In this document: positions 28,464-41,708 of the stretch, in pieces
How the letters are laid out: every line of letters begins with the position of its first letter
Numbering within the stretch: the stretch's first letter is position 1
Assembly (NCBI GenBank): GCA_964607755.1
Contig: CAZSMC010000001.1
Location: forward strand, 81,677-145,676
DNA from: an uncultured Cytophagia bacterium
Lineage (GTDB): Bacteria > Zhuqueibacterota > Zhuqueibacteria > Residuimicrobiales > Krinioviventaceae
Reading direction: 5' to 3'
Length of the DNA stretch: 64,000 bases
Translations under genes and position numbers: made by a program
Notes under the pieces: generated by a model
What the model was told of the DNA's origin: nothing
Databases searched by the model: none
The model's input: only the letters and a program-made list of their open reading frames with translations

Positions 28464-29655
28464 CTCTCAAGAGCCTCCTCTGAATATTTTTATTGATAAA
28501 GTACTTGTCAATAATAGGAGCAAATATGTTCATAAATAATATCGCCAGCATAGCCCCTTCTGGAAATGCTGGATTGACTACCCTGACCATAACGACCAGC
28601 ATACCGATCAAAAGACCATAGATCCATTTCCCGCCGGTTGTCATGGCGCCGCTCACCGGATCGGTTGCCATAAACACAGCGGCAAAAGCATAGCCGCCCA
28701 ATGCAAGATGCCAAACCGGAGATACTGCAAACATCGGATTGGTATCACTGCCAATCACATTAAACAGTAGTGCTGTGCCCACCAATCCAAGCAAAGTCGC
28801 GAGCATGATCCGCCAGGAGCCAATTTGGGTGACAACCAATACCAGAGCGCCGATTAAACAAGCAATAGTTGACGTTTCGCCCATGGAGCCGGGAATCAGC
28901 CCCCAAAACGCTTCTTTCCAGGTATAAGAAAGCTCGATAAGCGGATCAGCAAGCTGTGCCAACGGTGTGGCCTGGCTTAAGCCATCCACGCCAATCCACA
29001 CTTTGTCTCCTGAAATCTGCGCCGGATAGGCGAAGAACAAAAAGGCGCGTGACATGAGAGCGGGATTAAAAATGTTCATACCGACTCCGCCAAAGACTTC
29101 TTTTCCAATAATCACGCCAAAAGTTATTCCGAGCGCGACTTGCCAGTAAGGAATGGCAGGCGGACAAATAAGCGGGAACAGCAAACTTGTCACCAAAAAT
29201 CCTTCGTTCACTTCATGTTTTCGAACTATAGCAAAAAGCGCTTCCCAGAGTCCGCCAACAATGATAGTTATCAGATAGACAGGTAAAAAAAACAGCGCAC
29301 CGTGGACAAAGTTGGATAAAATATGAGTCGGATCAAAAGGAAGCCCCAATTGTATCATAGCCCGGGTTTGCCACAACCCCATGCTTATCTCAGGCATCCC
29401 GGCAAAAGCTGCGTTCGCTTGATATCCTGTGTTATAAAGCGCCATGATTGAACAGGGAATGAGAGCGTAAACCACCATAATCATCGCTCTCTTCATATCG
29501 ATCACGTCATGGACAAAGGGGCGGGTTTTCGTTCTTTTTCCTGTCGTATAAAGGATGGTATCCACCATCTCAAAAATCGGATAAAACCGTTGGAGTTTTC
29601 CGCCCTTTTTGAAATATTTTGCCTTTTTATCAAGAAACTTTCTTAATAATTTCAC
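28453..29655 (-). CDS. nqrB: Na+-NQR subunit B
   Basis: 400-aa polytopic protein with flavin-attachment motif DPVSGAMTTGG; NqrB/RnfD family. Confidence 0.85.
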   Translation of the reverse strand: MKLLRKFLDKKAKYFKKGGKLQRFYPIFEMVDTILYTTGKRTKTRPFVHDVIDMKRAMIMVVYALIPCSIMALYNTGYQANAAFAGMPEISMGLWQTRAMIQLGLPFDPTHILSNFVHGALFFLPVYLITIIVGGLWEALFAIVRKHEVNEGFLVTSLLFPLICPPAIPYWQVALGITFGVIIGKEVFGGVGMNIFNPALMSRAFLFFAYPAQISGDKVWIGVDGLSQATPLAQLADPLIELSYTWKEAFWGLIPGSMGETSTIACLIGALVLVVTQIGSWRIMLATLLGLVGTALLFNVIGSDTNPMFAVSPVWHLALGGYAFAAVFMATDPVSGAMTTGGKWIYGLLIGMLVVMVRVVNPAFPEGAMLAILFMNIFAPIIDKYFINKNIQRRLLRDEQ

Positions 29656-31004
29656 TATCCTTCCTTCTCAATGATGTTCAAATTTCTTCTCAACGCAGCA
29701 CAATGGTCGAGTTTTGACGGACACACAAAAGAACACAAAGCCAGGTCTTCCTCAACAAGTTCCAACACACCTAACTGCTCGGCATCATCCAGATCATTTA
29801 TAGCAATAGCGCGGAGCAAAGGGGTTGGCAAAATATCCAGGGGCATCACCCGTTCATAACTGCCAAAAGGAACAATGGCACGCTCGCTGCCGTGAATGGC
29901 TGTGGTAAAATTGAATTTTTTATTGGAAAAAAGTCTGGCCATGGTGACGTTAAAAGTAGAGTACAATTTTGGGCTAAAACTTGTCCAGCCAAGAAATACA
30001 CGTTTTTGTTCTTCCGGCAGTACTGAAACATTTTGATGATAACGACCCAGGTAAGCGATGGGATCTGAGGCATCACTCCCGGAAAGGATGGAACCGGAGA
30101 TGACCCGATTCTCACCTTTCATTAATTCATCTTTAACTATATCTTGTATCGACGCACCGACGCGCGTTTTAACCAGTCGCGGATTTTTCACCGATGGTCC
30201 GGCAAGTGAAATGACGCGCTCGGTCGGGAATTCGCCGGTAGTGAAAAGCAGCCCAATATCAACCACACTTTGCGCATCTACATGCCACACACTTTTATTG
30301 CGATTCACAGGATCGAGAAAGTGAATATGCGTACCAGGCAGGCCAGCAGGGTGAGGTCCGCTAAATTCTTCAACAGTCAACTGGTCGAGAGAAGGAGTGG
30401 GTATTTTGGTGCCGGGTTTTTTGCAAAGAAATAGTTTGCCGTTGGTGAGATTCGATAATACCGCAAGACCGTTTTTAAAAGCATCTTCTCTGCCCTGTAA
30501 AACAACCTCGACTGATGGAGCCAGAGGTTGTGTGTCCATCGCTGTAATAAAAATGGAATGCGGTGTGGTGGTGGGATCAGCGACTTTGCCAAAGGGCCGG
30601 GCTCTGAGAACAGGCCATACGCCGGAATCAATGAGTTGCTTAACAACAGTATCGCGATCAAGAGAAGAGAGTTTACGTTCTGCAAAAGATTCGAACGTGA
30701 CCGCCTTATCACCGTCAAGCTCGATAACAATCGACAGAAAAACGCGCTTTGTCCCTCTTATTACTGCAGATACTTTACCGCTTCCGGGGGCCGTGTATTT
30801 TACATCCGGTGTTTTTTTGTCAGTGAATAAAAGCTGTCCGCGTTTAACAGAATCGCCTTTGGATACAGCCATTGTCGGTTTCATACCGACATAATCTCCC
30901 CCAAGAAGCGCAACTGTTTTGGGTTGTTTTTCGCCGTCTATTTCCTGCCTGGGCTCACCAGCTATCGGAATATCCAACCCCTTTTTTATTCTGGTAATTC
31001 CCAT
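29655..31004 (-). CDS. nqrA: Na+-NQR subunit A
   Basis: 449-aa soluble subunit at the operon head; N-terminus MGITRIKKGLDIPIAGEP typical of NqrA. Confidence 0.8.
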   Translation of the reverse strand: MGITRIKKGLDIPIAGEPRQEIDGEKQPKTVALLGGDYVGMKPTMAVSKGDSVKRGQLLFTDKKTPDVKYTAPGSGKVSAVIRGTKRVFLSIVIELDGDKAVTFESFAERKLSSLDRDTVVKQLIDSGVWPVLRARPFGKVADPTTTPHSIFITAMDTQPLAPSVEVVLQGREDAFKNGLAVLSNLTNGKLFLCKKPGTKIPTPSLDQLTVEEFSGPHPAGLPGTHIHFLDPVNRNKSVWHVDAQSVVDIGLLFTTGEFPTERVISLAGPSVKNPRLVKTRVGASIQDIVKDELMKGENRVISGSILSGSDASDPIAYLGRYHQNVSVLPEEQKRVFLGWTSFSPKLYSTFNVTMARLFSNKKFNFTTAIHGSERAIVPFGSYERVMPLDILPTPLLRAIAINDLDDAEQLGVLELVEEDLALCSFVCPSKLDHCAALRRNLNIIEKEG

Positions 31005-31361: not shown

Positions 31362-33128
31362 ATGCGCACAAGATTATTATTTCTGTTTGCTCTAATCGCT
31401 TCGTTATTCATGTTTTGCAGCAAGGATGAGAACGGTGGCGATAAAACACCTACAGAACCATCGAACGGAGGAAACGGCGGTGAGTTCAGTTCGTTCACAA
31501 TCACCAAACATCGAATTATGACCGAGCTTCCGAGCAATGTATCTTTGCAGTTTCAAGTTTCAAATAAGGCTCAAAGCCAGGGTGCAGATTTTTTAAAGCT
31601 GGAAGATTTTCAGGTCATCGAAGAAGGAACCACTCTTGATCCTACTGAAGCATCTATGTACATTATCAAAAGACAAAGTCTGGATTATAAAGCAAAAATT
31701 ACCTTAATGCTAGACACTAATAACGGGACTAACCTGGACGCGATTAAAAATGGAGTGACTGAGTTTATTGACACTAAAGACCCTCAACAAGACATTGCAA
31801 TTTACTCTTTTGCTGACGAGATTACACTTGTCCAGGACTTTACTTCAAATGCGTCAACGTTAAAAGATGCCGTAAGCGGCCTTGAAACATCAGGAGATGG
31901 CAGCGATCTGTACGGTGCTTACATGGACGCTATCCGGAGCGCTTCCAGCCAGTATGGTCCTAATACTATACAGCAGCCATTTATCATTGTTTTTACGGAC
32001 AACAAGGATACAAAAGGTTCCTATCAAGCTGATTTTGTGGGGCATGCCGGCCGTGGACGTCAAATTATGTCAGTAGGGATCGGGAATAATATTAATACAG
32101 AAAATCTGGAAAAAATTGGCTATGAAGGCCTGTATCATGTAACCGATCCGGCCAAAATTACCGAGACAATCTCTGAACTCCAGAGTCGCATCATAAAGTG
32201 GATGGACAGCTTTTACTATCTCAGCTATACATCAAAACAACGCCGTGGATCATCTCATAGTATCCAACTTAAAATAAAGGGTAATTTAAATACTGATGAA
32301 GATTCAATAATCAAAGGGATTTTTTCGAGCCAGAATTTCGTCGATGTGGAGCAAGGATTGTATGTTAACTGGTCCTTTGCCAACCCGCAAGGCGTTGATA
32401 TGATCCTCGTCATGGTCGATAAATCAAGAGAAGTTGAAGCTCTTTCCATGGGAGGTACAAAAGTTCCGGATTATGAATGGAGCAGCGAAGACGCAAATGT
32501 CGTTGCAGTACAAGCCAGAGGCGGCGGTCGCGCTTTGCTAAAGGCTAAAGGCTCTGATGGTGACTCGACTCACGTCACTGTAAAAGATGTGGCCAATGGA
32601 TTCGAAAAAATATTCACAGTCCAGGTGGTCAGCTTTCAAATGGGCTCAATTCTTTTTGAATGGTGGGATAATCTAAGCGGCACATCCGTATCCGATTTAA
32701 CGAACAGTGATCGCTTTCCTGATAATCCCACAGGCAAAGATTATCTCGAGTCTTTTGAGATTCCAACAGACAAAAAAGACAATTATGCAACCCGGTTGCG
32801 CGGATTTCTGCACCCGGCAACAACCGGAGAGTACACATTCTGGATTGCCAGTGATGATGCATCTCGCCTGTATCTGAGCACAGATGAAAATCCGGAAAAC
32901 AAAACGGACATCTGCTATGTCTCTTCGTGGACAAGTTCGCGTGAATGGAATAAAGAAACCAACCAGAAATCTGCTCCCATTCAATTGGAAGCCGGCAAAC
33001 ATTATTATATCGAGGCCTTACATAAAGAAGGTGGCGGTGGTGATAATCTTGCAGTAGCCTGGGCTCTTGGAGATGGAGACAAAGAAGTTATTTCCGGCGA
33101 ATACCTCTCTGCATGGATTGGTGACTAG
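31362..33128 (+). CDS. lipoprotein with vWA-like, Big_2 and C-terminal PA14 domains
   Basis: Lipobox LFMFCSK; vWA-like segment (ITLMLDTNNGT...IAIYSFADEITL); Big_2-like (EDANVVAVQARGGGRALLKAKGSDG); PA14 signature TGEYTFWIASDDASRLYLS. Confidence 0.5.
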   Translation: MRTRLLFLFALIASLFMFCSKDENGGDKTPTEPSNGGNGGEFSSFTITKHRIMTELPSNVSLQFQVSNKAQSQGADFLKLEDFQVIEEGTTLDPTEASMYIIKRQSLDYKAKITLMLDTNNGTNLDAIKNGVTEFIDTKDPQQDIAIYSFADEITLVQDFTSNASTLKDAVSGLETSGDGSDLYGAYMDAIRSASSQYGPNTIQQPFIIVFTDNKDTKGSYQADFVGHAGRGRQIMSVGIGNNINTENLEKIGYEGLYHVTDPAKITETISELQSRIIKWMDSFYYLSYTSKQRRGSSHSIQLKIKGNLNTDEDSIIKGIFSSQNFVDVEQGLYVNWSFANPQGVDMILVMVDKSREVEALSMGGTKVPDYEWSSEDANVVAVQARGGGRALLKAKGSDGDSTHVTVKDVANGFEKIFTVQVVSFQMGSILFEWWDNLSGTSVSDLTNSDRFPDNPTGKDYLESFEIPTDKKDNYATRLRGFLHPATTGEYTFWIASDDASRLYLSTDENPENKTDICYVSSWTSSREWNKETNQKSAPIQLEAGKHYYIEALHKEGGGGDNLAVAWALGDGDKEVISGEYLSAWIGD

Positions 33129-33322: not shown

Positions 33323-33351
33323 TTGACATTGTAAACCGACAAGTATATATT
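33323..33351 (+). promoter_or_regulatory. sigma70-like promoter candidate for the KH-domain gene
   Basis: TTGACA, 17-bp spacer, TATATT, about 125 nt upstream of the ATG. Confidence 0.35.
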
Positions 33352-33476: not shown

Positions 33477-33707
33477 ATGAAAGAATTTGTTGAATACGTA
33501 GTAAAACACCTGGTTGACAGCCCTGAAGAGGTGAAAGTGACAGAAGTGGTTGGAGAAACCACTGTGGTTTATGAACTGCGAGTCAATCGCCCCGATATGG
33601 GAAAGGTCATTGGGAAAAACGGTCGAACTGCTCATGCCATCCGCGTTCTTCTCAGTGCTGTGGCTCGAAAGGCAGGAAAACACGCAACATTGGAAATTTT
33701 GGAATAA
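33477..33707 (+). CDS. KH-domain RNA-binding protein (UPF0109/YlqC-like)
   Basis: 76 aa; [28 protein letters not shown] contains the GxxG KH loop. Confidence 0.7.
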
Positions 33708-33759
33708 CATTTTTTCTACATCGGGGGCTTAAAACATGTTACAAGTGAGAGATAGGCAA

Positions 33760-33789
33760 GTCCATCATCCATGTGATGGACTTTTTTTT
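33760..33789 (+). terminator. Rho-independent terminator after the KH gene
   Basis: gtccatca-tccatg-tgatggac: 8-bp stem, followed by T8. Confidence 0.65.
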
Positions 33790-33826
33790 ATACTTAAACG
33801 TTCAAGATTTTGCTGGAAAAAATTGT

Positions 33827-34792
33827 ATGCAGTTGATACAGATTTCTCTTAAAGATATTGATCCAGATGACGATAGTTATCGCACATCTTTTCATCCAAC
33901 CGGTCGCTCTTTTCTTTATGATTCCATTAAATCACTGGGGCTTTTACAGCCGCTCGTCGTGCAAAAAAAGAACACAGATAAATACCGCCTGGTGTGCGGA
34001 TTCAGACGATATATAGTTTTGAATCAGCTTTCGATTGAATGTGCCAGGAGCTTTGTCATCTCGGAAAAAACGAAAAGCGCCAGGGTGTTTACCCTCGCTT
34101 TGCAGGATAATGTGACAATCCGTGAATTCACCCCAATTGACATCTCTATTATCATTAACAAGCTTGAAAGTGATTTCGCAATCCAGAAAAATGAGGTTAT
34201 TAATCAGTATTTTCCACTGGTTGGGTTGCAAAAGAACCCGAAAATCTATCAAAGATACAAACCGCTTGCCATGTTGCCTAAAAGATGGCAGCATGGGATT
34301 TTGGCGGACACAATATCGATTGAGATCGCTTCTCAATTTGCAGACCGGGACGAAAAAGAGCGAGAGGCGATGTGGCACATCATAACAAATCTCAAACCTG
34401 GCAAAAATCGTCAGCGGGAAATTTTACGCTTGCTGGATGATATTGCGCGGATTGAGCAAAAAGGTGTCCCTGAAATAATCAAAGAAAATGACGCCTTGTT
34501 TATTTTGAATGATAAAAAATTAACCCCATCGCAAAAGATGTCCCGATTCAAAGATTTTTTGTGGAAAAAAAGATATCCCCGCTATATGACAGTTGAAGAG
34601 AAATTTGACCACCTTGTTCATCAGGCAAAATGTCCACCGGATATTCAATTGCAGCACCCACCTTTTTTTGAAGGTGAAACTTTTCACGTCTCATTTGCAT
34701 TCAAGAGTTCTGATGATTTTGCACAAAAAATTCAGTTCCTGCAAACATTAAACGACAATGACATTATCAAAAAGATAACCCGATTGGCATGA
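33827..34792 (+). CDS. ParB/Srx-like N-terminal-domain protein
   Basis: Start re-assigned to ATG 33827 because the terminator lies inside the longer ORF; SLKDIDPDD...SIKSLGLLQPLVVQK...YRLVCGFRRYIVL follows the ParB N-domain pattern, but with GFRR in place of GERR; C-terminal about 200 aa of unknown fold. Confidence 0.5.
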   Translation: MQLIQISLKDIDPDDDSYRTSFHPTGRSFLYDSIKSLGLLQPLVVQKKNTDKYRLVCGFRRYIVLNQLSIECARSFVISEKTKSARVFTLALQDNVTIREFTPIDISIIINKLESDFAIQKNEVINQYFPLVGLQKNPKIYQRYKPLAMLPKRWQHGILADTISIEIASQFADRDEKEREAMWHIITNLKPGKNRQREILRLLDDIARIEQKGVPEIIKENDALFILNDKKLTPSQKMSRFKDFLWKKRYPRYMTVEEKFDHLVHQAKCPPDIQLQHPPFFEGETFHVSFAFKSSDDFAQKIQFLQTLNDNDIIKKITRLA

Positions 34793-35898
34793 CACTATCA
34801 TCATTTGCTCCGACTTTTCCACAAAAAATATATATTGAAAAAGCCGTTAAACAATCCAGTTTCACCCATCGCATCGTTAACACCTTTCCAGACACTCCTC
34901 ACCACTATGTAGCAGATGCAAATATGTTATTGGACCGGGCCCGTCAGGATGGAAATAAAAATAATTGGCAAGGCGCCCTGCTGTTGGCAAAACAACGCGG
35001 ACCTTTTGTGCGGCTGTGTCCGGGAACGCAAAAACATATCTGTTGCCTTTATCATAATCTGGACGTTGCTGCAGGCTGTGATTTGGGTTGTTCGTACTGC
35101 ATTCTTCAGGGATATCTGAATAATCCACTGATCACATTGTACTGCAATGTGGATGATATGTATAATGAACTGAATACGCTTTTATCGAAAAATTCGCAGC
35201 GGTTTTATCGCATCGGCAGCGGAGAATTGAGCGACAGTCTGACTTTTGATCACTTTACACATCTGGCCAGAGAATTGGTGCCGTTTTTCTCAAATAAAAA
35301 AAATGCAATTCTCGAATTAAAGAGCAAAAATATTCACATCGATGACATTCTTGGCATAAATCATAACAAACGGACGGTGATGTCCTGGTCGTTGAACTCA
35401 CAGGCTATTGCTGAAACTGAGGAATCTGGGGCCGCTTCTGTTGATGAACGTTTACGGGCTGCCCGTGAAGCCCAGTCCGCCGGATACCGTATTGGTTTTC
35501 ACTTTGATCCCATGATTGAACATCCGGATTGGCAGGACGGTTACCGGGAAACAGTGGCACGTATTTTTAAAAAAATCCATCCGAAATCAATCGCCTGGAT
35601 CAGTCTGGGCGCGCTTCGCTATCCGTCTGCTTTTGATGACATCATTCGGACGAACCATCCGCAATCGAACATTGTGCTGGGGGAACTTTTGCCGGGCATG
35701 GATAAAAAACTTCGCTATTTCGAACCTGTCCGAATTGAGATGTTCCGGAAAATGCACGAGTGGATTAAATCTTATTCCAAAGACGTATTTGTGTATTTGT
35801 GCATGGAAAGTTCCAAGGTGTGGCGAAAAGCTTTTGGCTGGACACCGAAAAACAGCGCACATTTAAAACAACTTTTAGACGAACGGGTTAAAGATTAA
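34789..35898 (+). CDS. spore-photoproduct-lyase (SPL) family radical SAM protein
   Basis: CDLGCSYCILQGY = CxxxCxxC radical-SAM cluster motif in the SPL-typical GCxYCxLQ context; length 369 aa; ATGA overlap with the upstream ParB-like gene. Confidence 0.5.
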   Translation: MTLSSFAPTFPQKIYIEKAVKQSSFTHRIVNTFPDTPHHYVADANMLLDRARQDGNKNNWQGALLLAKQRGPFVRLCPGTQKHICCLYHNLDVAAGCDLGCSYCILQGYLNNPLITLYCNVDDMYNELNTLLSKNSQRFYRIGSGELSDSLTFDHFTHLARELVPFFSNKKNAILELKSKNIHIDDILGINHNKRTVMSWSLNSQAIAETEESGAASVDERLRAAREAQSAGYRIGFHFDPMIEHPDWQDGYRETVARIFKKIHPKSIAWISLGALRYPSAFDDIIRTNHPQSNIVLGELLPGMDKKLRYFEPVRIEMFRKMHEWIKSYSKDVFVYLCMESSKVWRKAFGWTPKNSAHLKQLLDERVKD

Positions 35899-35966: not shown

Positions 35967-37724
35967 GTGAGATTGTTCATTATCATATTGATAACATGTG
36001 CGCTCAGTTCGGCGCAAAATATCAGTAAAGAAATTAAAAGTCAGGAGCTCTACGACCACATCGCTTACCTGGCTTCTGATTCATTAAAAGGCCGAAAACC
36101 CGGAACAGCGGTAGGAAAGCTGGCTGCTGAATATATCAAAAAACAAATTTCCCTTCCTGATGTCAATTTGTTGGCTGATGAAGGCATGCAATATTTTGAC
36201 ATTGTTTCATCGCTAAAATTGGCCTCAGGGAATTCATTCGCGTTCGACAATTTTTCTGGCCAGGTCGAAGAGGATTTTATGCCGGTTTCTTTTTCTGAAA
36301 ATTCGACGTTTACTGCTGTGGTAGCATTTTGCGGCTATGGGTTCGACATCCAGACTGAAGAGTTGACCTGGCAGGATTATGCAAACATTGATGTTCAGGA
36401 TAAATGGGTTTTGATACTGCGCTCTGATCCCGAGGCGGATGTGATGAACAGCGTTTTTGCCGAGTATAGCGGCCTGCGGAAAAAATGCCTGGTGGCAAAA
36501 GATCACGGCGCCGCTGGCGTCATTTTCGTTTCCGGTACGTCCTTTGATAAAAAAGACGAACTGCTGCCATTATCATTAAAAGAGAGTCACGTAACCATTG
36601 GCATGCCGGTTATTAACATCAAACGTTCAGTGGCAAATGCTCTTGTCGATGAGCAAAATGTAACCATTGATTCGCTCGAACACTATTTAAATGAGAAAAG
36701 AGAACCATTCAGCTTTAATAGTTTTCAAACAGTTACAGCAACTATAAATATTAACCGCGTTAAAAAGCAAACCCAGAACATCGTCGCGCGGTTGGATGGC
36801 ACGAGCGATGAAATTGTCGTCATCGGCGCTCATTACGATCATCTGGGCATGGGTGGGCCGGGCTCGAGTTCTCGCCGCCCGGATACACTTGCCATTCACA
36901 ATGGCGCAGATGATAACGCATCCGGTGTTGCCGCGATTGTGGAAATTTTTGAGAAACTCGCATTGCAGGAAGAAAAACGAAAACGAGATATTTTATTCAT
37001 CGGTTTTGGTGCGGAGGAAATGGGCGCGCTGGGATCAACGCATTTCATTCAAAACCCGGTTGCTGATCTGTCAAAAATCACCTTTATGTTCAACTTTGAT
37101 ATGATTGGGCGGTTTGATTCTACCCGTTCTCTTAGCCTCAATGGCAGCGGCACTGCCACCGGACTGGAAGAGCTTGTGCGTTCATATCTGCCCAGAAATG
37201 ACATTCGGCCGACTTTTTCGCCCAAAGGTTACGGCCCATCGGACCAATCCGCCTTTTACGCAGAAAACATTCCGGTGCTCATGTTCCACACCGGCGCGCA
37301 CGATGATTATCACACGCCAAATGATGACGTTGAATTTATCAACATAAAAGGCGTACAACAAATAGCAAATCTGGCATACGATGTCATTTTTGACATGGCA
37401 ATCCGGGATCGGGCTCTGGCGTTTCAGCACGCTGGTCCGGCAACCCCACCATCCTCGCGCAGACGGCTCAAAGTGACGCTGGGAATTATGCCTGACCATA
37501 CAACTGCCGATATAAAAGGACTGCGAGTGCAAGCAGTAATGCCAGAGCGGCCAGCCGAATTTGCCGGCATGAAAAAAGGCGATATCATCGTCGGCATCAA
37601 TGGCAAGCCTGTCGGAGATATTTATGAATATATGCATAGACTCAGGGAATGCCAGGCTTGTGAGCGGATAACGGTCAAAGTCATGCGGGATGGTGAAAGT
37701 AAGGTTCTGATTGTTGAACTTTGA
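35967..37724 (+). CDS. M28-family zinc aminopeptidase with PA insert and C-terminal PDZ domain
   Basis: GTG start with AGGAGA RBS; HYDHLGMGG, GADDNASG, GAEEMGALGS Zn-ligand motifs; PDZ GLRVQAVMPERPAEFAGMKKGDIIVGINGKPV. Confidence 0.7.
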   Translation: MRLFIIILITCALSSAQNISKEIKSQELYDHIAYLASDSLKGRKPGTAVGKLAAEYIKKQISLPDVNLLADEGMQYFDIVSSLKLASGNSFAFDNFSGQVEEDFMPVSFSENSTFTAVVAFCGYGFDIQTEELTWQDYANIDVQDKWVLILRSDPEADVMNSVFAEYSGLRKKCLVAKDHGAAGVIFVSGTSFDKKDELLPLSLKESHVTIGMPVINIKRSVANALVDEQNVTIDSLEHYLNEKREPFSFNSFQTVTATININRVKKQTQNIVARLDGTSDEIVVIGAHYDHLGMGGPGSSSRRPDTLAIHNGADDNASGVAAIVEIFEKLALQEEKRKRDILFIGFGAEEMGALGSTHFIQNPVADLSKITFMFNFDMIGRFDSTRSLSLNGSGTATGLEELVRSYLPRNDIRPTFSPKGYGPSDQSAFYAENIPVLMFHTGAHDDYHTPNDDVEFINIKGVQQIANLAYDVIFDMAIRDRALAFQHAGPATPPSSRRRLKVTLGIMPDHTTADIKGLRVQAVMPERPAEFAGMKKGDIIVGINGKPVGDIYEYMHRLRECQACERITVKVMRDGESKVLIVEL

Positions 37725-37792: not shown

Positions 37793-39208
37793 CTATCCGC
37801 TTATCAGGTCCAACTGAGCGACAACTTCAATGTGAGGCGTGTGCGGAAACATATCTACTGGCTGGACTTTATTCAAACGATACTGCTCTTGACACAGAAC
37901 CGACAACTCGCGTGCTAGCGTTGCCGGATTGCAAGAGACATGAACAATTCGGCGAGATTGAAGTTTGAGCACAGCTTCCACAGTTTTTGGATGCATGCCG
38001 CCTCGCGGTGGATCAAGAATGATCACATCTGGCTGACCATAGGTATCGACTATGGTTTGGGTGTCCCAAAGTGCGTCTTTGAGATCGCACTCGACAAAAG
38101 TGCAATTTGTGACATTGTTGATGTGGCAGTTCTCCCGGGCATTTTCCACAGCGGAAGTTACAGACTCGAATCCAGTTACATGTTTGACCCTGGAACTGAC
38201 ATAGATAGAAATAGAACCGGCTCCGCAATACAAATCGTACACATTTTCGTGTCCTTTAAATTCAGCGTAATCAACAGCAATATCATAAAGAACTTTTGCT
38301 GCTTTTGTGTTTGTTTGAAAAAAAGAATTGCTGGAAATCTGAAATTCAAAAGAATCCAGTTTTTCTGTAATTGCAGGCGATCCAAACAATAACATTTCCT
38401 GCTCGGAAAATGCCACGCTGGATTTGCTGGACGTGATTCCATTGATCAAACTGGTGATTTGTGGAAATGAGCCGGTGAGTTCTGCTGCCAAAGATGATAT
38501 CAGTTTCGGACGATATTCAGATGTGACCACTGTGACCATCAAATCATTTATGTTCAAACTGGGACGAATAATGAGAAATCGCAAGAATCCCTGATGGTCG
38601 CGCGTGCTGTACGCTGGCAACCCGCTTTGCCGCGCAAATTCTCGTACTGTTTTGAGAACCTCTGCGGCAATAGGTGATGTCAAATGACACTCTTGCAGAT
38701 CAATTACCTTGTCGTAAAAACCTTTGGCGTGCAAACCGAGGAAAAGACCATCCCGGTCGATGAGTTTGCCGGAATCGATTTCTTCGGGAGACAGCCAGCG
38801 AATCCGTGAAAAAGAAAACTCCATTTTGTTTCTATATTGGAACAAAAGTGGGGAAGAAATCGTGTTATTTATTTTAAATTCATTTAAATGACCAATGCGT
38901 TGCAGAATATCCCGGACTTGCTGTCCTTTTTGCTTTATCTGTTCTTCATAGTCGAGATTTTGAAACGCGCAGCCGCCGCAATGGCCGAAATGCGCGCAAC
39001 GGGGCTCAACAGCAAATTCTGATTCTTTCAAAACCGATAAAACTATGGCTTCGGCGTACGATTTTTTTTTGCGAATAATACGTGCCTTGACGGTTTGGCC
39101 TGGAATGGCATTCTTAATAAAAACGACAAAATCGTTAACCCGCGCCACGCCAAGGCCGCCATAAGCAAGAGATTCAATGTGTAAATTGAGTTCTGTTCCT
39201 TTTTTCAT
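37793..39208 (-). CDS. rlmD: 23S rRNA (uracil-5)-methyltransferase RlmD/RumA
   Basis: N-terminal TRAM domain; 4-Cys cluster CAHFGHCGGCAFQNL; SAM motif VYDLYCGAGSISIY; C-terminal catalytic Cys region. Confidence 0.7.
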   Translation of the reverse strand: MKKGTELNLHIESLAYGGLGVARVNDFVVFIKNAIPGQTVKARIIRKKKSYAEAIVLSVLKESEFAVEPRCAHFGHCGGCAFQNLDYEEQIKQKGQQVRDILQRIGHLNEFKINNTISSPLLFQYRNKMEFSFSRIRWLSPEEIDSGKLIDRDGLFLGLHAKGFYDKVIDLQECHLTSPIAAEVLKTVREFARQSGLPAYSTRDHQGFLRFLIIRPSLNINDLMVTVVTSEYRPKLISSLAAELTGSFPQITSLINGITSSKSSVAFSEQEMLLFGSPAITEKLDSFEFQISSNSFFQTNTKAAKVLYDIAVDYAEFKGHENVYDLYCGAGSISIYVSSRVKHVTGFESVTSAVENARENCHINNVTNCTFVECDLKDALWDTQTIVDTYGQPDVIILDPPRGGMHPKTVEAVLKLQSRRIVHVSCNPATLARELSVLCQEQYRLNKVQPVDMFPHTPHIEVVAQLDLISG

Positions 39209-39629: not shown

Positions 39630-41708
39630 ATGATAGATTTAAAAAACCGCCGGAATATCGGAATCAGTGCGCATATTGATTCAGGCAAGACCACTTTGAC
39701 AGAGAGGATTTTGTTTTACACGAACAGAATTCATGCGATTCATGAAGTTCGCGGCAAAGATGGTGTGGGCGCAAAAATGGATTCCATGGAACTGGAGCGT
39801 GAACGGGGTATTACTATTTCTTCCGCTTCCACAAATGTAGAGTGGCAAAATCACTCTATCGACATTATTGATACACCCGGGCACGTGGATTTTACCGTTG
39901 AGGTTGAACGCTCGTTGCGTGTGCTTGACGGCGCCATTCTTGTGTTATGCGCGGTCGGCGGGGTGCAGTCTCAATCCATCACCGTAGACAGACAAATGAT
40001 GCGCTACAAAGTGCCGCGGGTGGCTTTTGTGAATAAATGCGACCGCATGGGCGCAAATCCGGAGCGCGTGGCCGAACAATTGCGCGATAAACTTAATCAC
40101 AATGCAGTGCTCCTGCAACTACCCATTGGGCTGGAACAGGATTTTAACGGCATCATCGATCTGATTAAAATGAAAGCTCTCTATTTTGAAGGCGAATTTG
40201 GTGAAAAAATTCGCGAGGACGATATCCCTGACAATTACATAGAAAAAGCCATGGAGAAACGCGACATTCTGCTCGATGCTGCCTCTATGTTTAGTGACGA
40301 TCTCATGGAAGCTTATTTAGAAGACCGGGTCACAGAAGACCTGGTTTACGAAGCGGTTCGCAAAGGGACGTTGTCTCGTGAACTCACGCCCGTTTTCCTG
40401 GGTTCTGCTTTTAAGAACAAAGGTGTCCAGCCATTGCTGGATGGTGTGATAAAGTATTTGCCAAATCCGCAAGAAGTAGAAAACATTGCTCTTGATCTTG
40501 AAAATGATGAAGCCGAAGTCACGTTGACGTCCAACTATGATGATCCGCTTGTAGCATTGGCTTTCAAGCTTGAAGATTCCAGATTCGGCCAGTTGACTTA
40601 TATCAGGATTTATCAGGGTACGCTAACAAAAGGCATGGAGATTTACAACCAGCGTTCCGGTAATAAAGTTCGTGTCGGCCGGCTGATTCGAATGCACGCA
40701 AACGAAATGGAAGATATTGATTCGGCCGGGCCCGGCGAAATCATTGCCATGTTTGGCATTGACTGCGCATCGGGTGACTCGTTTACATCCAAAGAAGTCA
40801 ATTATTCAATGACATCCATGTTTGTTCCAACTCCGGTCATCTCGCTTTCAGTTAAGCCCAAAGATAACAAGTCTTCTGAAAACATGGCTAAAGCGCTTAA
40901 CCGGTTCACAAAAGAAGATCCTTCTTTTCAGAGTTATGTCGATAAAGAGACCAATGATACAATTGTCAAGGGCATGGGCGAGCTGCATCTGGATGTGTAT
41001 ATAGAACGGATGCGGCGCGAATACAATGTTGATCTGGAAACGGGCGCGCCTCAGGTTGCTTATCGTGAGAGTATTTCCAGGGCATCCGAATTTGACTATA
41101 CGCACAAGAAACAAACGGGCGGGGCGGGACAGTACGGCCGCGTCTCAGGTCTCATCGAGCCCAATCACGAAACAGATTTCGAATTTATCGATGAAGTCAA
41201 AGGAGGCGTCATTCCAGGTGAATATATTCCAGCCTGTAAAAAAGGTTTTGAGATTTGTTTGGAAAAAGGCACGCTTATCGGTTTTCCGATCGTTGGTGTC
41301 AAGATAACATTGAACGATGGCAACTATCATCCGGTAGACTCATCTGAAATGGCATTTCAAACCGCTGCCATGATGGCTTTTCGTGAAGCGTACAATAAAT
41401 GTAAGCCCATCATTCTCGAACCCATTATGCGGGTTGCTGTTGAAGGTCCATCTGAGTTTCAGGGAGCAATTTTAGCGACCTTGAACCAGCGGCGCGGCAT
41501 TATCAACAGTGCGACTGAGGATAACAACTTTACCGTCGTTGAAGCAGAAGTTCCGTTAAGTGAAATGTTTGGCTATTCCACGGTCTTGCGTTCCTCAACT
41601 CAAGGCAAGGCCGAATTCACTATGGAATTCAGCCGTTACGGCAAAGTTCCGGAATCCATTTCCGAAGAATTGAAAAAAGAGTTTGCAGAAAAAAATAAAA
41701 ATCAGTAA
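39630..41708 (+). CDS. fusA: elongation factor G (stand-alone copy, possibly the EF-G2-type paralog)
   Basis: [21 protein letters not shown]1 motif, [13 protein letters not shown], full five-domain length of 692 aa; not flanked by rpsG or tuf. Confidence 0.8.

Follow-up and report, generated by a model that had tools for sequence, protein, structure and literature searches.

Spore photoproduct lyase (SPL) has long been the textbook, and a nearly unique, case of radical S-adenosylmethionine (SAM) chemistry on DNA. The enzyme, SplB, is known from Bacillus and Clostridium (PDB 4FHC-4FHG), its reaction proceeds via a thymine allyl radical (PMC3467042), and in Bacillus the gene of a small regulator, splA, lies 5' of splB in the same operon. 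SPL-related radical SAM enzymes also occur outside the spore formers (TIGR03886; the SOS-regulated, photolyase-like proteins of COG1533) and are presumed to act on DNA there (PMC4951493, PMC3765255); SplB-like genes under SOS regulation have been reported from many phyla (PMC4951493), and cassettes of SplB-like, DUF4130 and UDG genes have been described (PMC3765255). Additionally, the SPL-like isomerase gp53 of phage M6 edits thymidine in phage DNA (PMC8989533). The CTP-dependent DNA clamps ParB, Noc and KorB, and the non-hydrolysing PadC, carry an N-terminal ParB/Srx domain ahead of a helical DNA-binding region of ParB type. Here we describe a pair of genes, one related to the ParB-type proteins and one to SPL, in a 64,000-nucleotide stretch (the window) of contig CAZSMC010000001.1 from an uncultured bacterium, to whose proteins close relatives carry the label candidate division KSB1. 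No description of a ParB-SPL pair was found in the searchable literature, which agrees with its presentation in a first-pass annotation of this DNA as an undescribed system. The pair, referred to below as the partner and the enzyme, is laid out as follows:

33827-34792, + strand: partner gene, 321 aa, with a ParB N domain, a probable ParB-type helical/helix-turn-helix (HTH) region and a novel C-terminal extension
34789-35898, + strand: radical SAM gene, 369 aa, of the SPL family and of a distinct subfamily
34789-34792, + strand: ATGA start/stop overlap of the two genes, translational coupling

The open reading frame calls reproduce the two-gene layout, the overlap and the enzyme length given in the first-pass annotation, while the partner is 321 aa long and not 322.

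The pairing was followed in two sets of loci. A scan of one genome per GTDB species yielded 69 loci, 65 of them informative, and a metagenome scan with the conserved motifs of the enzyme alignment yielded 80 further loci, 61 of them informative; partner homologues were detected at these loci by hidden Markov models built from the partner. A partner homologue lies within 300 nt upstream of the enzyme gene, on the same strand, in 112 of the 126 informative loci (59/65 genome loci and 53/61 metagenome loci). Within 5 kb of the enzyme gene it is found in 116 loci, in four of them farther than 300 nt upstream. Enzyme homologues with 51-66% identity have the same gene upstream, which overlaps the enzyme gene by 4 nt in L003-L006 and by 1 nt in L007, whereas the remaining neighbours of these relatives are wholly different and include KhpA, a single-stranded DNA-binding protein (SSB) with a nucleoside-salvage operon, or a GT2 glycosyltransferase. 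The ParB-like/radical SAM pair is a true, conserved and translationally coupled unit that recurs far beyond chance. Chance adjacency, named in the first-pass annotation as one outcome that would refute the pairing, does not fit a partner upstream of the enzyme at this frequency, and the neighbourhood census that it proposed shows the partner recurring in both sets.

According to the record titles, whose labels are those of metagenome-assembled genome records, the genome loci come from KSB1, Syntrophobacteraceae and other Desulfobacterota, Binatia, Acidiferrales (Acidobacteriota), Limnocylindrales (Chloroflexota), Verrucomicrobiia, Polyangiaceae and Spirochaetota. The pair occurs in one cultured strain, Desulfoferrobacter suflitae DRH4 (L029). 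The partner evolves much faster than the enzyme: across 55 loci, partners share on average 27% identity with that of the window, and enzymes 44%. Because of this, a word-based search yielded only four partner homologues. The corresponding word-indexed search gave 4431 homologues of the enzyme, a count that takes in more distant SPL-family proteins. An exhaustive profile search with the partner, at a threshold of E<=1e-3, returned 3810 cluster representatives, of which 2429 reached E<=1e-10; its best matches were mostly long forms of ~320 aa. The partner family comprises at least 2400 clusters at 50% identity.

The enzyme family was aligned with two outgroups, SplB of Bacillus velezensis and an SPL-family protein of Deinococcus, conservation was counted over 122 sequences, and residue roles were mapped from the structure paper on the G. 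thermodenitrificans SPL (PMC3467042). The features that carry the comparison are these:

35077-35100, + strand: cluster motif C97-x3-C101-x-Y103-C104, invariant in the 122 sequences, with cysteines equivalent to SPL C90, C94 and C97; in the window enzyme ILQGY follows
35017-35046, + strand: C77-P-G-T-x4-C85-C86 insertion, with three of the four extra invariant cysteines
35224-35226, + strand: Glu146, aligned with the hydrogen-donor Cys140/141 of SPL, Glu in 122/122
35800-35802, + strand: Cys338 in the C-terminal VYLCME extension, 122/122, the fourth extra cysteine

Membership in the SPL family, as the first-pass annotation had it, is supported by the Pfam SPL family PF20903, which matches residues 91-299 (E 5e-34, 118.1 bits, cutoff 27), and by the PDB, where SPL structures are the sole relatives over the same residues (E 1e-27). 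The cluster motif, described there as that of SPL, is likewise of the SPL CX3CXYC type, and the N-terminal region is homologous to that of SplB. Identification as SP lyase proper did not stand. The enzyme scores 114.4 bits with the SP-lyase equivalog TIGR04070 (cutoff 400) and 64.8 bits with TIGR03886 (cutoff 437.55), and it is only ~23-25% identical to SplB (23% in the family alignment, 25% by tblastn).

The retained residues are those of the SAM machinery and of the phosphate contacts. The SPL SAM ligands K174 and S195 correspond to K180 and S201, invariant in 122/122, Tyr96 is kept as the invariant Y103, and the intra-lesion phosphate binders R273 and K309 are present as R277 and K307, each in 122/122. 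In contrast, the dihydrothymine-recognition residues are lost: R193 is replaced by Ser, Ala or Gly, E268 by Gly (122/122), and Y339 has no counterpart. The β-hairpin with R304 and Y305, by which SPL flips out the lesion, falls in a 14-residue deletion in every aligned family member, and the Tyr98 position holds Ile in the window enzyme and Ile, Tyr, Val or Phe across the family. Since the phosphate clamp is kept, these alignments argue for a dinucleotide-like, nucleic-acid substrate, and since the base-recognition residues are gone, they argue for a substrate other than spore photoproduct. Describing the enzyme as an SPL in a Gram-negative bacterium is therefore misleading: with Cys140, Arg193, Glu268, Tyr339 and the Arg304/Tyr305 hairpin all missing, it belongs to a distinct SPL subfamily and is no orthologue of SP lyase.

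The family also has four additional cysteines (C77 in 121/122, C85 in 120/122, C86 in 121/122 and C338 in 122/122), and these CPG..CC and YLCME features are absent from both Bacillus SplB and the Deinococcus protein. C77 sits in the segment equivalent to the SPL loop that holds the 3'-thymine, the C85-C86 pair lies within a 7-residue insertion, and C338 lies within a C-terminal extension of ~35 residues. Together, these four residues may provide the substrate pocket with an auxiliary metal or redox site. The enzyme may also keep a thiol hydrogen donor, because C77 is one residue away from the position of the alternative donor cysteine of Clostridium SPLs (PMC3467042 comparison).

These residues bear on another explanation of the locus, that the enzyme is a true spore-photoproduct lyase of a bacterium that does not sporulate, where it would repair 5-thyminyl-5,6-dihydrothymine with the ParB-like protein as its accessory factor. 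The Pfam assignment, SPL as the closest solved structure, the retained phosphate-binding Arg/Lys and Tyr96, and the position of the invariant Cys77 would all suit it. We consider it improbable, however, given the low TIGR04070 score, the Glu in place of Cys140, the loss of R193, E268, Y339 and the hairpin, and the variable Tyr98 position. The habitats of the source lineages also count against it: these are mostly bacteria of sediments and soils, with many anaerobes among them, in which UV exposure and spore-like DNA states are not expected. As a separate observation, the SPL-family gene on Deinococcus gobiensis plasmid P1 (L078:2501-5834) is of the TIGR03886 type and is followed by genes for a DEAD/DEAH helicase and a DUF790 protein, with no ParB-like gene; it represents another SPL-like subfamily with DNA-processing neighbours.

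The partner carries the ParB N-type domain proposed for it in the first-pass annotation, with PF02195 (ParB_N) matching at E 4e-9 and 36.7 bits (cutoff 26.3). Its two defining features are:

33833-34111, + strand: ParB N-terminal (ParB/Srx) domain, residues 3-95, PF02195, in long forms only
33998-34009, + strand: GFRR motif, residues 58-61, in place of ParB GERR

The replacement of GERR by GFRR, within VCGFRRY at residues 56-62, is a family trait. Among 67 long-form homologues the motif reads Gly (67/67), aromatic (62/67), Arg or Lys (64/67) and Arg (67/67), and Glu occurs at its second position in none. Alignment to the CTP (cytidine triphosphate)-bound Myxococcus xanthus ParB 7BNK places Ser17 at Q52 and Phe59 at E93, while the PRT-box Arg, both Arg of the Arg-rich Box II and the Asn of Box III remain in place. 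We take Q52 and E93, which were mutated to Ala in the deposited ParB structures 7BNR and 7O0N, to be the CTP-hydrolysis residues, which would then be replaced in the partner. By this alignment, the partner plausibly binds a nucleotide and is unlikely to hydrolyse it; in this it would resemble PadC, itself one of the Foldseek matches of the partner. The partner scores 46.3 bits with TIGR00180 (parB_part), below the cutoff of 58.45. No ParA-like neighbour was seen among the called and Pfam-scanned genes of the fetched loci, in which parS was not searched systematically.

The N domain is not what is shared by all partners. Binatia-type partners are ~183 aa long and align solely to window residues ~145-321, and the sampled loci hold 72 long-form and 44 short partners. 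The shared part is:

34259-34789, + strand: universally conserved partner module, residues ~145-321, no Pfam family

Because the short partners match this region alone, the alignments point to the C-terminal ~170 aa, a probable ParB-type HTH with a novel, Pfam-less extension, as the constant companion of the enzyme, and the ParB N domain is a gain or loss that varies by lineage. The first-pass annotation had offered the ParB/Srx domain as what accompanies the enzyme and had called the C-terminal half uncharacterised. The first view fails in the Binatia-type loci, where the N domain is missing; the second is correct in that the half has no Pfam family, yet this is the part that always accompanies the enzyme. 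No family in Pfam, NCBIfam or the PDB sequences was found to cover the module. A gene of ~300 aa that lies 5' of short partners was considered as a split-off ParB N domain and proved to be a GT2 glycosyltransferase.

AlphaFold2 models of the full partner and of the module alone had predicted local distance difference test (pLDDT) values of 93.4 and 92.5, respectively. In Foldseek searches against the PDB, the full model aligned with ParB, Noc and KorB at E 3e-8 along 215-250 columns, which span the N domain and the ParB DNA-binding region, and the isolated module matched Spo0J, VirB and the ParB DNA-binding domain weakly. In our reading of these models, the module probably begins with a ParB-type HTH and continues into a novel helical/β extension, in place of the ParB dimerisation domain. 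R249 and P251 are invariant among partners, E282 is nearly so, and there is no invariant Gly or Cys.

Two further explanations concern the role of the partner. It could be a mere transcriptional autoregulator, like SplA for splB in Bacillus; the order of that operon and the HTH-like region of the partner would fit. The partner, however, stays strictly adjacent and translationally coupled across phyla while promoters and neighbours change, it contains a large conserved extra module with R249, P251 and E282, and it has no similarity to SplA, so that we give this explanation little chance. Alternatively, the partner could itself be the substrate, modified post-translationally by the enzyme. Radical SAM genes often adjoin the gene of their protein substrate, and R249 and P251 are invariant, but the SPL fold and retained phosphate binders of the enzyme point to a nucleotide substrate, and the partner is predicted to be a well-folded helical protein (pLDDT 93) lacking any invariant Gly or Cys. 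A substrate role therefore seems very unlikely.

Our leading interpretation, held tentatively and at somewhat less than an even chance, is that the pair is a two-subunit, DNA-directed radical SAM system in which a ParB-derived adaptor supplies the DNA handling and the substrate is other than spore photoproduct. The catalytic subunit would be the SPL-fold enzyme, with its [4Fe-4S]/SAM machinery and its phosphate-holding basic residues. In a physical complex with it, the partner would bind DNA and present it to the enzyme, replacing the DNA-handling function lost with the β-hairpin; the long-form partner might act as a nucleotide-gated switch or clamp, with CTP bound without turnover. The enzyme would then perform 5'-deoxyadenosyl-radical chemistry on a nucleotide pair or DNA lesion unlike spore photoproduct, and the outcome could be the repair of another lesion or the installation of a modification. 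This interpretation is supported by co-occurrence in 112 of 126 loci across lineages with differing neighbours, the conserved 4-nt overlap, SPL as sole solved relative, the kept SAM and phosphate residues and the deleted hairpin. It is further supported by the ParB/Noc/KorB fold match, the basic character of the partner (pI 9.3) and the divergent ssb neighbour in 7 fetched loci, all of KSB1 type (e.g. L004:4442-4888, L005:4391-4840, L009, L011, L012 and L069). The SOS-regulated SplB-like enzymes (PMC4951493) and phage M6 gp53 (PMC8989533) serve as precedents.

Several observations weigh against it. An adjacent partner is absent from ten of the 126 loci (~8%), where genes unrelated to it, for sensor kinases, σ54 activators, an NTPase and a peptidase, have truly taken its place; the Spirochaetota loci are without partner. 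Conversely, the partner can occur without an adjacent enzyme gene: at L079:5001-5975 a long-form partner stands beside purC, no radical SAM gene is called downstream, and a gap of ~450 nt is followed by a major facilitator superfamily transporter. The thymine-recognition residues of SPL are not conserved, so that homology alone gives little information on the substrate, and both the partner-enzyme interaction and DNA as the substrate are points that we infer. RNA-related neighbours are also present (KhpA, TilS, the SpoU methylase and RlmD). Finally, the third gene that recurs with the pair, in 50 of 94 loci, encodes a soluble GT2 glycosyltransferase; it could point to a non-DNA substrate, is not explained by our leading interpretation, and is our main reason to retain the modification and non-DNA readings set out below.

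The GT2 gene lies directly 5' of the partner in 37 of 59 genome loci and 13 of 35 metagenome loci (examples are L007:4097-4963, L034:3512-4516 and L080:4217-5062). In part of the loci its stop codon and the partner start overlap, by 4 nt in the P0262 contig. The protein of the Binatia-type loci shares 54-55% identity with that of the long-form locus L007, and it is matched best by GT-A enzymes of a generic polysaccharide type, namely TuaG, EpsD and chondroitin synthase. The 64-kb window contains no GT2 homologue, and the Syntrophobacteraceae loci have none adjacent.

With this gene in view, the pair could serve DNA base modification, in which the enzyme would activate a pyrimidine (e.g. at the thymine methyl), GT2 where present would add a sugar, and the ParB-like protein would delimit the region. 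The conservation of GT2 across distant lineages at this site, the thymine allyl radical of SPL chemistry (PMC3467042) and four extra cysteines compatible with an auxiliary cluster or thiol chemistry all favour it. Phage M6 gp53 is a precedent for non-repair chemistry by an SPL-fold enzyme, as it acts on modified thymidine in DNA (PMC8989533), although its gene belongs to a phage and it acts together with a kinase, an aGPT-Pplase and a pyridoxal phosphate enzyme. We rate base modification as unlikely, since GT2 is missing from the window and from the vicinity of the Syntrophobacteraceae pairs and resembles an ordinary polysaccharide-type enzyme, there is no restriction-like or reader partner, and these organisms have no known modified base. 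In a more specific and still less likely form, pair and GT2 together would hypermodify a DNA base without the need for oxygen, as an anaerobic counterpart of base J in bacteria. The SPL-like enzyme would functionalise a pyrimidine (e.g. the thymine methyl) in duplex DNA using 5'-deoxyadenosyl-radical chemistry and the extra cysteines, the partner, with CTP bound and not hydrolysed, would be loaded at particular sites and spread from them so that the mark is regional, and GT2 would glycosylate the product.

GT2 is equally an argument for a non-DNA substrate, such as RNA (tRNA or rRNA), a small molecule or a glycan, with the ParB/Srx-derived protein as a nucleotide-dependent co-enzyme or scaffold. 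The neighbouring genes for KhpA, TilS, SpoU methylase, RlmD and release factor 2 would agree with RNA, and ParB/Srx folds include kinases, with Srx, SerK and SbnI among the fold matches of the partner. The RNA-related neighbours vary by lineage, however, and only the partner, and often GT2, recurs; the ParB/Srx domain is dispensable and absent in short forms; and the best fold matches are the DNA-binding ParB, Noc and KorB, DNA-binding domain included. A non-DNA substrate is therefore an outside chance in our estimation, though one worth retaining.

The SpoU/TrmH-type RNA 2'-O-methyltransferase gene (L007:7101-7664) overlaps the stop codon of the enzyme gene in one lineage. In several KSB1-type loci (e.g. 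L004, L005, L011 and L069), ssb is followed by a nucleoside-salvage cluster with genes for cytidine/dCMP deaminase, uridine kinase, thymidine kinase, purine nucleoside phosphorylase and a nucleoside transporter. Six metagenome loci (L096:6051-6611, L100, L101, L102, L104 and L115) have an IS200-like Y1 transposase (RAYT-like) of ~186 aa directly 3' of the enzyme gene. Genes 3' of the enzyme are not conserved among loci. Within lineages, stable synteny was observed in the form of SLT/CoxG/GT2-pair-MurI/SecA, TilS/PurC-pair and SSB-pair arrangements. SecA, MurI, SLT, CoxG, TilS and PurC were rejected as functional partners on account of this lineage-specific distribution.

The first-pass annotation had also suggested a defence-related base modification. 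Defence systems such as DndB offer a general precedent for ParB-like domains together with DNA-modifying enzymes, and an anti-phage or other mobile-element DNA-modifying system was accordingly considered. Neither protein of the pair, nor the short partner, matches any model of PADLOC-DB 2.0. Among 72,556 plasmids and 50,697 phages there are no close relatives, only distant SPLs with at most 28% identity, and a pattern scan of 2.9 million viral contigs found no family member. The pair has the GC content of its flanks, no tRNA or integrase genes lie near it, and each lineage stably keeps its own neighbours of the pair, SecA/MurI, PurC/TilS or SSB. These results, together with the housekeeping context, largely refute a defence or mobile-element function, which we regard as scarcely credible.

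The surroundings of the pair in the window comprise the following features:

33758-33791, + strand: hairpin and T-run, a stem-loop at 33758-33783 with 11 pairs and then the T-run, likely an attenuating terminator
33477-33707, + strand: khpA, the KH gene (PF13083, E 2e-25)
33323-33351: promoter of near-consensus σ70 type, TTGACA-17-TATATT, 5' of khpA
31362-33128: VWA and PA14 domain protein, 588 aa, upstream flank
29655-31004, - strand: NqrA, near the pair
35967-37724: peptidase of the M28 family, 585 aa, with a PDZ domain at its C-terminus, downstream flank
37793-39208, - strand: RlmD-like protein, near the pair
39630-41708: EF-G, near the pair

All genes flanking the pair are ordinary chromosomal genes. 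The upstream KH-protein gene of the first-pass annotation is indeed khpA; it was rejected as part of the module, since it adjoins the pair only in the closest relatives of the window (L001-L003), and elsewhere the gene 5' of the pair encodes SSB, PurC, GT2 or others. A terminator was also correctly placed between khpA and the pair, but its proposed role of isolating the two is doubtful. Only ~37 nt separate the T-run from the partner ATG, no promoter-like site was found in this gap, and the order khpA-hairpin-pair recurs in L003. It is thus more likely that transcription from the khpA promoter continues past a partly terminating hairpin than that the pair is fully separate in transcription. 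The stem sequence (AAGTCCATCA...TGATGGACTT) is shared with L003 although the partner there is only 35% identical to that of the window, which points to an attenuator under conservation and not to a terminator present by chance. Just 5' of the hairpin, an imperfect palindrome, CTTAAAACATGTTACAAG (core AACATGTT), lies at 33728-33745 and is not kept in L003. Nothing convincing or conserved was found near the operon in the way of parS-like or LexA-like palindromes.

Automatic annotation labels these genes as 'DNA photolyase' or 'spore photoproduct lyase', which is almost certainly wrong in detail. What is new is a large and phylogenetically broad sister subfamily of SPL, with a remodelled active site and four new invariant cysteines, together with an obligate-looking ParB-derived partner whose conserved core domain has no Pfam family or solved relative. 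Once known, the substrate would add a new reaction to the radical enzymology of DNA, or possibly of RNA, and the partner would represent a new role for the ParB CTP-switch fold outside segregation. The presence of the pair in the cultured Desulfoferrobacter suflitae DRH4 makes the question experimentally tractable.

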